This document shows positions 1 to 64,000 of a DNA stretch of 64,000 nucleotides, piece after piece. A program made the translations under genes and the position numbers. Numbering within the stretch: the stretch's first letter is position 1; every line of letters begins with the position of its first letter. The DNA is from Escherichia coli (lineage in GTDB: Bacteria > Pseudomonadota > Gammaproteobacteria > Enterobacterales > Enterobacteriaceae), in NCBI RefSeq assembly GCF_003790525.1, contig NZ_CP033635.1; one strand, given 5' to 3'. The notes beneath the pieces were generated by a model, which had not been told where the DNA came from, did no database searches, and saw only the letters and a list, made by a program, of their open reading frames with translations.

Positions 1-1217
1 AAGGCGTTAATCTTCACGCCAGCAGGGGAATGAATGCTTATTCCGACGGGGAGTAGGGCGAGGAATGCCTGCGCCCACTGTGGATTTTTTTCGCGCAGGA
101 CGGCGTGATACCAGGCGCGCAGTAGCGCCTCCTGCCAGTCGGTTTTCCCGGCCCAGCGCAGCAGTTCAACGGGGGTAGCCTGCAGTTGCGTTTGCCACCA
201 GTCGAGCGGAACCGCTGCAACTATCTGATACAGCCACCATGCGCGCTGGCCCAACTTTTCGCCTTTGGGCTTAGTTTCTTCCAGCGCATCGGCCTTCCAC
301 TCTGGTAAGAACGCCTCCGGGGCATCAAGGGCGACGCGCAGCATTTTTTCTTTGCCGGATAAGCCTTTTAGCCTTTCAAGTAAGGTCTCAGGAGCGGGGG
401 ATGAACTGAGCAACGGCGCTAACCGAGACTTCATGCGCGAGATCCAGGCGCTTTCCGGCAGACAACACAGTAACCGTGCCGCAGTTTGCCGCACCTCTTT
501 GCTGCGATCGGATAATGTCTGTTCCAGAAAGGCTTCGTCGTGTTGGGAGATCCCCACTTCCAGCACAGCCAGCAGCTGTGCGCGTTCGCGGGCATCCAGC
601 GAACTCATCTCCTGCGCCAGCCGATCGCGACCCTGTTCCGGGGCGCGAATGCGCATTTGCGTCAGATATTGCAGACGCTGTTCGGACGTGCCGTGCAGCC
701 ACATTTCTTCATCCAGCGGAGCGTCAGTGGAGGCGAGAACATAGCCCCAATCGGCGTTGATTTGCGCCAGCCAGCACCCGCGAGCGCCCAGAACATTGGA
801 CAGGATGCCGCGTAGAGATGGCTTTTGCGCTCCATAATTCAGCAATGCTGGTAACAGCAGGGGCGGAGGAAGAAGTTGACGACGGACCAATAGATCAAGC
901 GCCGACCACAGCAACCGCGGCGGTCCTTCTGACAGCAGCAGATGCAGCAGTCCCGCAAAAGCCGGGTTGTTTATTGGCTCGGCATTTTCTTTATCGATTT
1001 CCGGCAGCGGTGCGGGGTCAATCGCCTGCGGCACCCAGCCAGCCAGATGGCAGAGCGCCAGAACGCCCGCCGAGCGCAGTAGCTGTTGCTCTGCGGATGT
1101 GTTATTCGCCAGTTCAGACAGTAACAGCCCAATCTCACTTTGCGACGCCGACGGTGTAAACGCTTTTTTGTCTGTGCCGAGTAGCGCTGTGCGGGTTAAA
1201 TTTTGCCATTCGTTCAT
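1..1217 (-). CDS. hypothetical protein, partial (>=405 aa, runs off window start); translationally coupled partner of the SWIM gene; not in ORF track
   Basis: Own reverse-strand translation from ATG at 1217..1215, which overlaps the SWIM stop TGA (1216..1214) as ATGA; GGAGG lies 6 nt upstream. Reads MNEWQNLTRTALLGTDKKAFTPSASQSEIGLLLSELANNTSAEQQLLRSAGVLALCHLAGW... with no stop down to position 1. Leu/Ala-rich, helical-looking. Confidence 0.6.
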   Translation of the reverse strand, partial: MNEWQNLTRTALLGTDKKAFTPSASQSEIGLLLSELANNTSAEQQLLRSAGVLALCHLAGWVPQAIDPAPLPEIDKENAEPINNPAFAGLLHLLLSEGPPRLLWSALDLLVRRQLLPPPLLLPALLNYGAQKPSLRGILSNVLGARGCWLAQINADWGYVLASTDAPLDEEMWLHGTSEQRLQYLTQMRIRAPEQGRDRLAQEMSSLDARERAQLLAVLEVGISQHDEAFLEQTLSDRSKEVRQTAARLLCCLPESAWISRMKSRLAPLLSSSPAPETLLERLKGLSGKEKMLRVALDAPEAFLPEWKADALEETKPKGEKLGQRAWWLYQIVAAVPLDWWQTQLQATPVELLRWAGKTDWQEALLRAWYHAVLREKNPQWAQAFLALLPVGISIHSPAGVKINA

Positions 1218-2536
1218 TGTGCGCCTCCGGTTGCCCAAATGACGCTACCGGCAAGCCAGGCGCTACAGGGCGTCAGCTGCTGACCATCCCATTCCCCCAT
1301 TAGCATAAACGGCGCGCCGCCGCTGGCCGCCAGTAACCGCCAACCCTCGTCCGACGACAGGTGCGTCGGTAAGTGCTGGCCCTGTGTCGAGACGAATCGC
1401 CAGCCGCTCTCGTGCGGGTAAATCAATATTTCGCTTACTCGCAGCGGCAGAGGCCATTGCCAGGGATTCGCGCTAAGCCGCTGCGCCATGTCATGCAGCG
1501 CGTCCGGGAGGGGTAATTCTGCAAGCGGGAATCTTTCACCGCGGGTAAACGGCTCCACAACCCGCGCCCGTAGCGGTGATGCGCCAGGGAAAAAGGCAAG
1601 CGCGCCCTGGCAGACTTGCCCGGTGATAAAGTGCTGGGGAAAGTTTTTACTACCGTGTGAATAGTCCAGCAGTAGCGCGGTGCGGTGGCTCTTTTCTCCG
1701 TACAGCCAGACCCGGCGTCGCCACAGATTATTCCCTTCTTGCGCGCTTTGACCTAAGACCTGCCAGTTATCGAGGCAGGTTAATCCGTCAGTGACGTCGT
1801 GTTTATCCGGGGGTATTCCCAATGCCGCATGGAGATCGCTAAGTTGTGCCGGGGATAACATTTGTTGCTGGCGCCAGGCGTCAATAATCAGCTGTAGCTG
1901 CCCCAGTTCTTTGCACAGGCTCGATGGCCATACCTCGGCGGTAGTAAAATGAGTGGTCAGATTGTTCAGGCGAGCGGCAATTCCCGGTAGTTGGGCGTCG
2001 ACCATGCGGGCGGCGATCCCGGCAAAAGGCAACTGTTGTGCAGAGATCTGCGCCAGACCGTGGCGGATCAGGTCGTGCATCCACTGTTCGAGGAAATCCA
2101 GCCCCGCCGTCATTTTTTGGTTGCGTGCCGCTTCCCGTTTGGCGGCAGCCTGCGGGTCGGCAGCTTTTGCCTCAGCCTGCTCTTTCTTCTCTTCTTTGCG
2201 AACCGCCCGCTGCTGGCGCGAGGTTAGCCACTCGCTTACCCATTCCGGCGGCTCGCCAGCGGTGAAACTTGCGGTGTGTTGCACCTGGAGAAAAAGCAAC
2301 GCAAGGCTATGTTTACAGGGGAATTTACGGCTGGGGCAGGAACATTTACAGGCCAGATCCTGTCTGTCGATTCGTACCTGATAAGGGCGGGAGCCGCTAC
2401 CTTTACACTCTCCCCAGAAGGCAGCCTCGCTATATCCGAGCGTCGGCCATTTTGCGGGAGCAACCAGGCCACGAGCCGCTTTAACCGAGGCGTCATCGGG
2501 CGCCAGGGCTTGCACTGATTCAACGGTCAGTTCCAT
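1214..2536 (-). CDS. SWIM zinc-finger domain protein, 440 aa, function unknown
   Basis: ORF-track protein carries a CxCxnCxH motif (CKCSCPSRKFPCKHSLALLF) typical of SWIM zinc fingers, followed by a charged linker (RKEEKKEQAEAKAADPQAAAKREAARNQ); no resemblance to GltF; GC-rich. Confidence 0.75.
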   Translation of the reverse strand: MELTVESVQALAPDDASVKAARGLVAPAKWPTLGYSEAAFWGECKGSGSRPYQVRIDRQDLACKCSCPSRKFPCKHSLALLFLQVQHTASFTAGEPPEWVSEWLTSRQQRAVRKEEKKEQAEAKAADPQAAAKREAARNQKMTAGLDFLEQWMHDLIRHGLAQISAQQLPFAGIAARMVDAQLPGIAARLNNLTTHFTTAEVWPSSLCKELGQLQLIIDAWRQQQMLSPAQLSDLHAALGIPPDKHDVTDGLTCLDNWQVLGQSAQEGNNLWRRRVWLYGEKSHRTALLLDYSHGSKNFPQHFITGQVCQGALAFFPGASPLRARVVEPFTRGERFPLAELPLPDALHDMAQRLSANPWQWPLPLRVSEILIYPHESGWRFVSTQGQHLPTHLSSDEGWRLLAASGGAPFMLMGEWDGQQLTPCSAWLAGSVIWATGGAQ

Positions 2537-12924: not shown

Positions 12925-13578
12925 ATGAAGAAAATTGGCGTAATTCTGAGCGGATGCGGCGTCTATGACGGTTCTGAAATTCATGAAGCGGTGTTGACGT
13001 TGTTAGCTATTTCACGCAGCGGTGCGCAGGCGGTCTGCTTTGCACCGGATAAGCAGCAGGTTGATGTAATCAATCATTTAACTGGCGAAGCGATGCCGGA
13101 AACGCGCAATGTGCTGATTGAAGCGGCACGAATAACGCGTGGTGAGATCCGCCCTCTGGCCCAGGCCGATGCCGCTGAGCTGGATGCGTTGATTGTGCCG
13201 GGGGGGTTTGGTGCGGCGAAGAATTTAAGCAACTTTGCCCGTCTGGGGAGTGAATGCACCGTTGACCGTGAATTAAAGGCGCTGGCACAAGCGATGCATC
13301 AGGCCGGAAAACCGCTTGGTTTTATGTGTATTGCCCCGGCGATGCTGCCGAAAATTTTCGATTTCCCGCTGCGTTTGACCATCGGTACTGATATTGATAC
13401 CGCAGAAGTGCTGGAAGAGATGGGCGCGGAGCATGTGCCGTGTCCTGTCGATGATATCGTGGTTGATGAAGACAATAAGATTGTCACCACCCCTGCATAT
13501 ATGCTGGCGCAGAACATTGCAGAAGCGGCGAGCGGCATTGATAAGCTGGTTTCCCGCGTGCTGGTCCTGGCGGAATGA
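12925..13578 (+). CDS. elbB: DJ-1/PfpI-like protein ElbB
   Basis: [30 protein letters not shown]..., 217 aa. Confidence 0.9.
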
Positions 13579-14303
13579 GTAAAAGCCGCTTAACGGTGTT
13601 TAGTTTCGTTCGCCGTTTTCTTCTGCGGTTAATGGTTGTCCTCGCCGTTTTCTGGGGCGGGGGCATCGCGTTGTTTAGCGTTGCGCCTGTTCCCTTCTCA
13701 GCGGTAATGGTTGAGCGGCAAGTCAGCGCCTGGCTGCATGGCAATTTTCGTTACGTGGCACATTCTGACTGGGTCAGTATGGATCAAATCTCGCCGTGGA
13801 TGGGACTGGCGGTGATTGCCGCAGAAGATCAGAAATTTCCTGAGCACTGGGGCTTTGATGTCGCTTCCATTGAGCAAGCCCTGGCGCACAACGAACGCAA
13901 TGAAAACCGTATTCGCGGTGCGTCAACGATTTCTCAGCAGACAGCCAAAAATCTCTTTTTATGGGATGGGCGCAGCTGGGTTCGAAAAGGGCTGGAAGCC
14001 GGATTAACGCTGGGGATAGAAACGGTCTGGAGCAAAAAGCGTATCCTGACGGTTTACCTGAATATCGCCGAATTTGGCGACGGTGTGTTTGGCGTCGAAG
14101 CTGCGGCACAACGTTATTTCCACAAACCCGCGAGCAAGCTTACCCGGTCGGAAGCTGCATTACTGGCAGCTGTATTACCTAATCCACTTCGTTTCAAAGT
14201 CTCCGCGCCATCGGGCTACGTGCGTAGCCGTCAGGCGTGGATTTTACGGCAGATGTATCAGTTAGGCGGTGAGCCGTTTATGCAACAACACCAGCTTGAT
14301 TAA
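13575..14303 (+). CDS. mtgA: monofunctional peptidoglycan glycosyltransferase
   Basis: 242-aa ORF with transglycosylase motifs ([16 protein letters not shown]); 4-nt overlap with the elbB stop. Confidence 0.93.
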
Positions 14304-14932
14304 GCTTCGCGCGAAGTGAGGGCCAGCGTTTTGCTCTCACGAGGTTGCAGATCTTTCTGCAGGGCAATAGCCAGCGCCGGTTGGGCGATAAATCGTTTCC
14401 ACAACCGCTCTTGCTTACGCAGACAACACCACTTCGACCAGGTCGCCAGTGGAATCAATGTGCTTTCACCAATGTTGTCGCAGACGACGGGGATAACCTC
14501 TGACTCACTGATGCGATGACAAAGGATATTCTGCGGCTTCAGCGACATCGTCACGATACGGTTATCCTGTAAATAACGCTTCAGCTGTTTCAGTAGCTGG
14601 CGCAGTTGTGCAATGTCTTCTTCGTAACGGCATTGTTCAGCAAATTCGGTCAGCGTAATGGAGGGCTTGCCGTCAAAATCTGCAATCACATCGTAGACAT
14701 AACCGGTTCCGCAATCCGTCTCAACGGTACCGTGATAGCGCGGTATTCCACTCCAGTCTTTTAACCGGCGACCAAGATGCGCGTAGTACTTTAACTCACG
14801 GCGGATCTCTTTATCGCCACCATCGCCACGATGGTAGACAATCTTGATACAGCGTTGGGCATCTTCCGGATGCGCATAACATTTCCGATGTCTTCCGGTG
14901 CCCAGGGGACTTTGTTCAGATAAGCGAATCAT
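14300..14932 (-). CDS. yrbL: PhoP-regulated protein YrbL (210 aa; ORF-track start trimmed)
   Basis: ORF contains [28 protein letters not shown]... Confidence 0.85.
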
Positions 14933-43253: not shown

Positions 43254-43260
43254 TGTCGAA

Positions 43261-61965: not shown

Positions 61966-62490
61966 GTGTTGGATAAACTGCGTTCCCGTATTGTGCATTT
62001 GGGGCCATCTCTGTTGAGTGTACCGGTAAAACTGACGCCATTTGCGCTAAAACGCCAGGTTCTTGAGCAGGTCTTAAGCTGGCAATTCCGCCAGGCGTTG
62101 GATGATGGCGAGCTGGAGTTTCTTGAAGGCCGCTGGTTAAGTATTCATGTGCGTGATATTGACCTGCAATGGTTTACCTCGGTGGTGAATGGCAAACTGG
62201 TCGTTAGCCAGAACGCGCAAGCTGATGTGAGTTTTAGTGCCGACGCCAGCGATCTGCTGATGATTGCGGCGCGTAAACAAGATCCGGATACGCTCTTCTT
62301 CCAACGTCGGCTGGTGATTGAAGGCGATACGGAGCTGGGGTTATATGTGAAAAACCTGATGGACGCCATTGAACTGGAGCAAATGCCGAAAGCCTTACGC
62401 ATGATGCTGCTGCAACTGGCGGATTTTGTTGAGGCGGGAATGAAAACCGCGCCTGAAACCAAACAGACATCGGTAGGTGAACCATGCTAA
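61966..62490 (+). CDS. ubiT: SCP2-domain ubiquinone biosynthesis accessory protein (probable GTG start)
   Basis: ORF contains (V)LDKLRSRIVHLGPSLLSVPVKLTPFALKRQVLEQVLSWQF..., 174 aa (formerly yhbT). Confidence 0.85.
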   Translation: MLDKLRSRIVHLGPSLLSVPVKLTPFALKRQVLEQVLSWQFRQALDDGELEFLEGRWLSIHVRDIDLQWFTSVVNGKLVVSQNAQADVSFSADASDLLMIAARKQDPDTLFFQRRLVIEGDTELGLYVKNLMDAIELEQMPKALRMMLLQLADFVEAGMKTAPETKQTSVGEPC

Positions 62491-62987
62491 TTCGAGTAGA
62501 AATTCCCATTGATGCGCCGGGTATTGATGCCCTGCTGCGTCGTTCATTCGAAAGTGATGCGGAAGCGAAGCTGGTTCACGATCTGCGTGAAGATGGCTTT
62601 CTGACGCTGGGGCTGGTGGCGACAGATGACGAAGGTCAGGTCATTGGCTATGTGGCATTTAGTCCGGTTGATGTGCAGGGCGAAGACCTGCAATGGGTCG
62701 GCATGGCACCGCTGGCGGTAGATGAAAAATACCGTGGACAGGGGCTGGCACGCCAACTGGTCTATGAAGGACTCGATTCGCTTAATGAGTTCGGCTATGC
62801 CGCAGTGGTGACGCTGGGCGATCCGGCGCTGTACAGCCGTTTCGGCTTTGAACTGGCGGCACATCACGATCTGCGTTGCCGCTGGCCGGGCACTGAAAGT
62901 GCCTTCCAGGTACATCGTTTAGCGGATGACGCGCTGAACGGTGTAACTGGTCTGGTTGAGTATCACGAGCACTTCAATCGCTTTTAA
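62484..62987 (+). CDS. yhbS: GNAT-family N-acetyltransferase YhbS
   Basis: 167-aa [41 protein letters not shown]... Confidence 0.9.
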
Positions 62988-63276
62988 TCTTTGGGGTTTG
63001 CAGGCTGCTCAACAGTTCTGCAAACCCTGCGCCTTCCGCTACCAGACGCTCTTTTTGCCGTTTGGTCAGTTGCTTAACGCGATATTCCGCCCGTAGTGCC
63101 AGCGAACGATCGCCCACTGGCGCGGAAAACGCCAGCGTCAGTTCTCCTTTCCCGCGCAGTGCTTTCGCCCCTTTGCCGCTTTGGTGCTGCTGATAGCGGC
63201 GTTCGACATCTGTGGTGATCCCGGTATAAAGCTTATTGTCGGCGGTACGGATCAAGTAAAGAAACCAGGGTGTCAT
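62974..63276 (-). CDS. yhbQ: GIY-YIG nuclease-superfamily protein YhbQ
   Basis: 100-aa [43 protein letters not shown]... Confidence 0.9.
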
Positions 63277-63326
63277 CGTCTGCGTCGCATGTTAAGGTCA
63301 GGCCCACAGTATAAAAGAGAACAGCA

Positions 63327-63770
63327 ATGGAAACACTCACCGCCATCAGCCGTTGGCTGGCAAAACAACATGTTGTCACCTGGTGTGTGCAGCAGGAAGG
63401 GGAACTGTGGTGCGCTAATGCCTTTTATCTTTTTGATGCGCAGAAAGTCGCCTTCTACATTTTGACGGAAGAAAAAACGCGCCACGCGCAGATGAGTGGG
63501 CCGCAGGCGGCAGTTGCCGGAACGGTAAACGGTCAGCCGAAAACGGTAGCGTTAATTCGCGGCGTGCAATTTAAAGGCGAGATCCGCAGGCTTGAAGGTG
63601 AGGAAAGCGAGCGTGCGCGCCAGGCGTACAATCGTCGCTTTCCGGTTGCCAGAATGCTGTCGGCACCGGTGTGGGAAATCCGGCTTGATGAAATCAAATT
63701 CACCGACAACACGCTGGGCTTTGGTAAAAAAATGATCTGGCTACGTAACTCAGGCACCGAGCAGGCGTAA
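63327..63770 (+). CDS. yhbP: pyridoxamine-5'-phosphate-oxidase-like protein YhbP
   Basis: 147-aa [40 protein letters not shown]... Confidence 0.88.
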
Positions 63771-64000
63771 TGCCTCGCGGTTAAACGCTGGCAGATCGTC
63801 CGGTGTACGGCTGGTAACCAGCTGATCTTTATCGACCACCACTTCCTGATCGTAAAATTCCGCGCCCGCGTTTTTAACATCAATAATGATCGGTTTAACG
63901 GCAGTCAGTTTGCGCCCCCGAATCACATCGGCGCTGATCAGCAGCTGCGGACCGTGACAGATGGCGAAAACAGGTTTGCCGCTATTCACAAAATCGCGGG
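63750..64000 (-). CDS. yhbO: DJ-1/PfpI-family stress protein YhbO, 3' portion only (gene continues past window end)
   Basis: Reverse frame reads ...[74 protein letters not shown]; the track's Met at 63989 is internal. Confidence 0.85.

Follow-up and report, generated by a model that had tools for sequence, protein, structure and literature searches.

Three convergent gene pairs in a stretch of the Escherichia coli chromosome share their last coding nucleotides, and we consider it highly probable that these are ordinary convergent coding overlaps of passive origin, whose regulatory effect is probably small. The stretch that was analysed, hereafter "the window," comprises 64,000 nucleotides, and its coordinates convert to the reverse strand of E. 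coli SMS-3-5 (NC_010498.1) as 3589997 - x, where x is the window position. The two overlap-bearing stretches that we compared were 100% identical to SMS-3-5 and were found at an identity of at least 95% in ~5,424 of 5,426 complete E. coli genomes. A preliminary description had reported overlaps of 14 nt for yhbS/yhbQ, 21 nt for yhbP/yhbO, and 4 nt for mtgA/yrbL, and all three were recovered at the positions given there, both by direct reading and from the list of open reading frames (ORFs), as well as from the RefSeq annotations of SMS-3-5 and K-12. The genes and their overlaps are as follows:

62484 to 62987, + strand: yhbS coding sequence, encoding a GNAT N-acetyltransferase, second gene of ubiT-yhbS, with a conserved C-terminus that ends in HFNRF before the stop (ORF list, RefSeq).
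62974 to 63276, - strand: yhbQ coding sequence, encoding a GIY-YIG DNA-damage-response nuclease, with a C-terminal tail that is variable in length and sequence (ORF list, RefSeq).
63327 to 63770, + strand: yhbP coding sequence, with a variable C-terminal tail (ORF list, RefSeq).
63750 to 64000, - strand, running past the window end: 3' part of the yhbO coding sequence (full gene 63750 to 64268 in the source genome), with a conserved C-terminus that ends in REALRLLGA before the stop.
13575 to 14303, + strand: mtgA coding sequence, last gene of elbB-mtgA (ORF list, RefSeq).
14300 to 14932, - strand: yrbL coding sequence (ORF list, RefSeq).
62974 to 62987: yhbS/yhbQ coding overlap of 14 nt, with the yhbQ stop (TCA on the + strand) inside the YhbS Phe-Asn codons TTC-AAT.
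63750 to 63770: yhbP/yhbO overlap of 21 nt, with the two frames in codon-aligned antisense.
14300 to 14303: mtgA/yrbL overlap of 4 nt, TTAA, consisting of two interlocked TAA stops.

All three pairs lie on opposite strands with facing 3' ends and have stop codons that are located within, or interlock with, the coding sequence (CDS) of the partner. In the yhbP/yhbO overlap, the correspondence is reciprocal: The TAA of yhbP lies opposite a Leu codon TTA of YhbO, and the TGA of yhbO lies opposite a Ser codon TCA of YhbP. If one member of each pair had been miscalled, for instance in a wrong frame or because of a sequencing error, the overlaps would be annotation artefacts. This reading is effectively refuted. 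The RefSeq coordinates of all three pairs in SMS-3-5 match the window ORFs exactly, the K-12 MG1655 annotation has the same 14-, 21-, and 4-nt overlaps, and the sequence recurs in the ~5,424 E. coli genomes mentioned above. Start-codon choice is unable to remove the overlaps, since they involve stop codons only, and a reassignment of starts or stops, which the preliminary description had named as the outcome that would undo them, would leave them in place. Homologues of the four yhb genes with matching frames and ends were found in up to 80 Enterobacteriaceae species, and the mtgA and yrbL frames were compared among E. coli genomes only.

Overlaps of this type are common enough that three of them in one window are no statistical anomaly. 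With the 75 convergent overlapping pairs counted in E. coli (Huvet & Stumpf 2014, PMC4161906), ~1.03 such overlaps are expected per 64 kb, and the Poisson probability of finding three or more is 0.087, i.e., a mild local excess. Two of the three overlapping pairs are, moreover, neighbours in one cluster, yhbS-yhbQ-yhbP-yhbO, in which the strand alternates from gene to gene within ~1.8 kb. Among the eight convergent gene pairs in the window, three overlap, the spacer of argG/yhbX is only 7 nt long, and spacers of 40 to 155 nt separate the remaining four. The coding sequences of argG and yhbX do not overlap across their spacer (43254 to 43260), the pair is likewise listed in the published E. coli excludome, and it is an instance of the same phenomenon as the three overlapping pairs. 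Two further features of gene arrangement were apparent. Within the cluster, yhbQ and yhbP are divergent and only 50 nt apart (63277 to 63326), and their promoters and 5' untranslated regions (UTRs) must either overlap or be located within the coding sequence of the other gene. At the beginning of the window (1 to 2536, - strand), a SWIM zinc-finger gene overlaps a DUF5691 gene by 4 nt and adjoins gltD on the gltD 3' side. This position is held by gltF in K-12, and the SWIM zinc-finger/DUF5691 stretch may be strain-variable DNA.

The length of the yhbS/yhbQ overlap turned out to be set by the protein sequence of YhbS. We scanned one genome per species with YhbQ, which yielded 80 Enterobacteriaceae loci, and extended the tblastn matches to their stop codons. 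The overlap measured 14 nt in 65 of these species, 17 nt in three, 25 nt in one, and 4 nt in seven, and the four remaining species had none, at least one of them with an apparent assembly or frameshift problem; these counts are phylogenetically non-independent samples. The last five residues of YhbS, HFNRF, are well kept, with the commonest residue at each position common to 84 to 91% of species, versus only 14 to 52% at most positions of the YhbQ tail. The better-kept exceptions in that tail include the near-terminal Lys and the final Asp, which look conserved because the YhbS codons on the opposite strand largely dictate them. The same holds for the stop itself: In the yhbQ frame, the strand opposite the YhbS Phe-Asn codons TTY-AAY reads TGA or TAA, and the 14-nt overlap is thus fixed by YhbS.

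At the yhbP/yhbO junction, the conserved partner is YhbO, whose tail REALRLLGA is 85 to 100% conserved as against 23 to 50% for the YhbP tail. Here, the overlap takes one of three lengths, 21 nt (with the yhbP stop at Leu166), 15 nt (at Leu168), or 4 nt (with the stops interlocked), and whichever YhbO Leu happens to be spelled TTA or CTA supplies, in antisense, the yhbP stop. In the window, the Leu166 and Leu168 codons of yhbO lie within 63759 to 63770 (- strand) and supply the yhbP stop on the opposite strand. A TTA or CTA codon was present at Leu166 or Leu168 in 44 of 47 species, compared to 12% of the Leu codons elsewhere in yhbO, with the species again being non-independent. On the sequence data, this bias suggests that yhbO is restricted in its use of synonymous codons by the requirement to provide yhbP with a stop. 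At 28 of the 80 loci (L009, L010, L014, and L015 among them), yhbO was not found adjacent to yhbP, and this overlap is therefore less widespread than that of yhbS/yhbQ.

These patterns are consistent with a simple origin of the two yhb overlaps. A gene with a weakly constrained tail (yhbQ or yhbP) that had no in-frame stop of its own would have read on into its neighbour, and reading would have ended at the first stop provided by the antisense of the neighbour's conserved C-terminal codons, i.e., Phe-Asn in YhbS and a TTA or CTA Leu in YhbO. The mtgA/yrbL pair represents the minimal case, a TTAA interlock of two TAA stops. Judged by the comparison across the 80 Enterobacteriaceae species, the overlaps appear to be old and to have such a passive explanation; the arrangement would persist mainly because an overlap locks two genes together.

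The overlaps do have a consequence at the level of RNA. That the 3' ends of these pairs must be mutually antisense had been proposed in the preliminary description, and it is already documented in the literature, through excludome entries, a Term-seq end, Rho-dependent regions, and an RNase III duplex. All three pairs, along with argG-yhbX, are among the 165 convergent excludons called in at least 50% of 58 MG1655 RNA sequencing samples (ExcludonFinder, PMC12288877). Such an entry is weak evidence of regulation, since any pair with overlapping coding sequences gets flagged when both genes are expressed. More specifically, Adams et al. 2021 (PMC7815308) mapped a Term-seq 3' end on the yrbL strand at K-12 position 3349181/3349182 and categorized it as antisense to mtgA. 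By K-12 coordinates and exact sequence match, we placed this end at window position ~14203, which is 97 nt past the yrbL stop and inside mtgA, yielding the following feature:

14203 to 14299, - strand: 97-nt stretch from the yrbL stop to the Term-seq 3' end, antisense to the last ~33 codons of mtgA and read as the yrbL 3' UTR.

A stem-loop without a U tract is located at 14202 to 14241, and the yrbL-strand 3' end falls at its 3' base. In the bicyclomycin (BCM) table of the same study, three Rho-dependent regions are antisense to the partner genes: 3349699 (+), antisense to mtgA, with a score of 14.6 (yrbL direction); 3348808 (-), antisense to yrbL, with a score of 3.2 (mtgA direction); and 3299102 (-), antisense to yhbO, with a score of 4.8 (yhbP direction) (PMC7815308). 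Accordingly, the yrbL, mtgA, and yhbP transcripts run ~620, ~270, and ~370 nt, respectively, into their partners before being stopped by Rho. We found no Rho entries for the yhbS, yhbQ, and yhbO directions in the PMC7815308 tables, and those that we searched reported no Term-seq 3' ends for the yhbS, yhbQ, and yhbP transcripts; the 3'-end positions and mode of termination of these last three are therefore proposed by analogy with yrbL. The supplementary SMRT-Cappable-seq tables yielded no match. The six 3' regions were only mildly C-rich, and their C/G content was uninformative for rut sites. In the explanation that we favour, each mRNA would extend past its own stop into the partner gene and end there by Rho-dependent termination, as published data indicate for part of the set, and the position of the steady-state yrbL 3' end, at the base of a stem-loop that lacks a U tract, fits a Rho-terminated transcript that was trimmed back to a protective hairpin (Dar & Sorek). 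Separately, a strong published Term-seq 3' end lies inside yrbL, ~130 nt after its start (K-12 3348581; window ~14803, - strand), and published p19 data place a double-stranded RNA (dsRNA) cluster with the label "New AS" at the 5' end of yrbL. The two observations jointly hint at premature termination or an antisense RNA in the yrbL 5' region.

The preliminary description had further held that the overlaps leave no room for terminators. This stood insofar as no convincing canonical intrinsic terminator was present: A consensus scan for a hairpin followed by a T-run gave match counts within the shuffled expectation at the three junctions, with none of the matches convincing, and Rfam returned no match at E ≤ 1 for either region. 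One candidate at 63808 to 63824 (+ strand), 38 nt after the yhbP stop, was weak and at chance level, and we rejected it; the published Rho region is located ~370 nt further on. As worded, the claim is imprecise and not supported, because signals for termination and 3'-end formation need no intergenic space, and here they reside inside the partner coding sequence, as Rho-dependent regions and as stem-loops without a U tract. One such stem-loop follows yhbS:

62993 to 63028, + strand: stem-loop with arms GGGGTTTGCAG / CTGCAAACCC, beginning 6 nt after the yhbS stop and lying within the last ~17 codons of yhbQ.

This hairpin has no U tract on either strand. Its folding energy on the + strand is -24.8 kcal/mol, with a z score of -2.65, and the z score on the - strand is -3.0. 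In an alignment of 59 species, 80.5% of cells could pair, as compared to ~50% when the partners were slid, and 43 cells carried a double change versus 21 in shuffles, a number that none of 500 shuffles reached. One pair splits into GC in 25 and CG in 21 cases. In this pair, one arm contributes the synonymous third position of a Thr codon, and its changes are matched on the opposite arm at a non-synonymous position, which points to constraint on the nucleic acid itself. In 37% of species, the hairpin ranked within the bottom 5% of local folding energies, and it was absent in Kosakonia, Phytobacter, and others. A family-wide consensus structure had to be rejected, as RNAalifold predicts none for the 59 sequences; within Escherichia, Citrobacter, and Salmonella, it yields an 8-bp stem only. 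The hairpin is thus clade-restricted. We regard it as a likely candidate for a 3'-protective hairpin of the ubiT-yhbS mRNA. A second hairpin followed by a CTCTTTCTG tract, downstream of yhbS in Klebsiella, Enterobacter, and Kosakonia, was also considered and rejected: It showed 40% pairing, a value that rests on our own column assignment, and no covariation, and it is absent in E. coli.

The inverted repeat at 62993 to 63028 might instead act as a bidirectional terminator driven by collision (Ju et al. 2019; Wang et al.), where its hairpins would form in both transcripts and pause polymerases arriving from either side, such that a head-on collision sets both 3' ends. The repeat does fold on both strands, it is located at a gene junction, it lacks a U tract as do members of that class, and it displays partial covariation. 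On the yhbQ strand, however, the hairpin is inside the coding sequence and ends 17 to 19 nt before the yhbQ stop, such that a 3' end just past it would produce a non-stop mRNA. Furthermore, the hairpin is missing in many genera that retain the yhbS/yhbQ overlap. We consider the collision model quite improbable; it fits less well than a 3'-protective hairpin, as the yhbQ-strand hairpin ends ahead of the stop codon.

Taken together, the rare Leu codons in yhbO and the hairpin covariation suggest some selection on the junctions, and to call the overlaps "purely passive" may, from these comparative data, be too strong. In its full form, such selection would act at the nucleic-acid level, with yhbO keeping the rare Leu codons TTA or CTA for the sake of the yhbP stop and the stem-loop in the yhbQ tail being kept by compensatory changes in order to protect or terminate the yhbS transcript. 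We deem this full form distinctly unlikely. If it were true, then yhbS-yhbQ-yhbP-yhbO would constitute a coupled antisense unit under reciprocal control, mediated by RNase III or by collision.

For one of the pairs, the complementary 3' ends have been caught in the act of pairing. A perfectly paired 22-nt RNase III/p19 duplex with 2-nt overhangs was reported with the annotation "yhbQ yhbS" (Huang et al. 2020, PMC7373196, Table S3), at a low abundance of ~3 to 7 reads per million (RPM), and its yhbS-sense strand begins at the first nucleotide after the yhbS stop. Its equivalent in the window is as follows:

62986 to 63009: window equivalent of the "yhbQ yhbS" duplex, formed by the yhbS 3' UTR and the yhbQ mRNA.

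The duplex is direct evidence, at low abundance, of pairing between the yhbS 3' UTR and the yhbQ mRNA and of their cleavage by RNase III. Among the table rows listed in PMC7373196, there was none for the 3' junctions of yhbO/yhbP or mtgA/yrbL. In the passive explanation, complementary 3' regions can pair in this way, with RNase III cutting them at yhbS/yhbQ, and the regulatory effect would probably be small or incidental.

A more consequential reading is that these pairs are functional excludons, with the overlaps being kept because they let a gene, when expressed, repress its partner, whether through colliding RNA polymerases, through RNase III cutting the paired 3' regions, or through both. 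Candidates would be the anaerobic ubiT-yhbS versus the DNA-damage gene yhbQ, the stress-induced yhbO versus yhbP, and the PhoP-regulated yrbL versus elbB-mtgA. The RNase III duplex at the yhbS/yhbQ junction agrees with such a role, as do the rare Leu codons kept in yhbO, the tight convergent layout conserved across 80 species, and the presence of all three pairs in the published excludome, in which synteny is, on the whole, higher than among other neighbours. Yet, our literature search found no report on reciprocal expression of these pairs, and the ExcludonFinder authors were unable to validate convergent excludons with p19 data (PMC12288877). The p19 read density was ~38-fold lower at convergent than at divergent overlaps, the yhbQ/yhbS duplex is of low abundance, and the conserved overlap length is fully explained by the protein-coding constraint on the partner. 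Regulatory coupling of these pairs, including the transcriptional interference that the preliminary description had put forward as possible, may exist, and we judge functional excludons to be an unlikely explanation of the overlaps.

The overlap arrangement belongs to a common, annotated, and already published class. Like the convergent overlapping pairs catalogued in prokaryotes (PMC4161906, PMC2716372), the pairs described here lie on opposite strands, share a few to tens of nucleotides at their 3' ends, and have conserved synteny, and their overlap is explicable by 3' extension after loss of a stop codon. Nothing essential differs from these pairs; what is added is that the partner's codons set the exact overlap length across genera. 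To convergent excludons (Lasa/Toledo-Arana; PMC12288877), they are alike in having overlapping transcription at the 3' ends with no terminator between the genes and, for yhbQ/yhbS, an RNase III duplex; the defining outcome of that class is mutually exclusive expression, and the likeness drawn here is one of transcript overlap. The Rho-dependent, hairpin-protected ends described by Dar & Sorek 2018 (PMC6061677) resemble the yrbL-strand end, which sits at the base of a stable stem-loop that lacks a U tract and is followed by a BCM-sensitive region, and a comparable candidate hairpin follows the yhbS stop. In contrast to those ends, the protective hairpin and the Rho region here are both embedded in the opposing gene's coding sequence. 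Finally, the inverted repeat at the yhbS/yhbQ junction, being unlike an intrinsic terminator, recalls overlapping bidirectional terminators (Ju et al. 2019; Wang et al., bioRxiv 10.1101/2022.10.23.513370). Those terminators are situated between gene boundaries and are Rho-independent (bioRxiv 10.1101/2022.10.23.513370), whereas the pairs described here have no DNA between their genes, three of their six directions are documented as Rho-dependent, and the hairpin close to yhbS falls within the yhbQ ORF.

Overall, annotated convergent coding overlaps in E. coli do yield RNAs with complementary 3' ends, and a gene can harbour the termination signals of the gene that faces it, both of which are already in the literature, and the overlaps carry little significance beyond bookkeeping. 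Our additions are modest: a codon-level account of the overlap lengths (14 nt for one yhb pair; 21, 15, or 4 nt for the other), which are stable or switch among Enterobacteriaceae, and the embedded hairpin. The case could serve as a textbook example of how the protein constraint on one gene fixes the stop codon of its neighbour.
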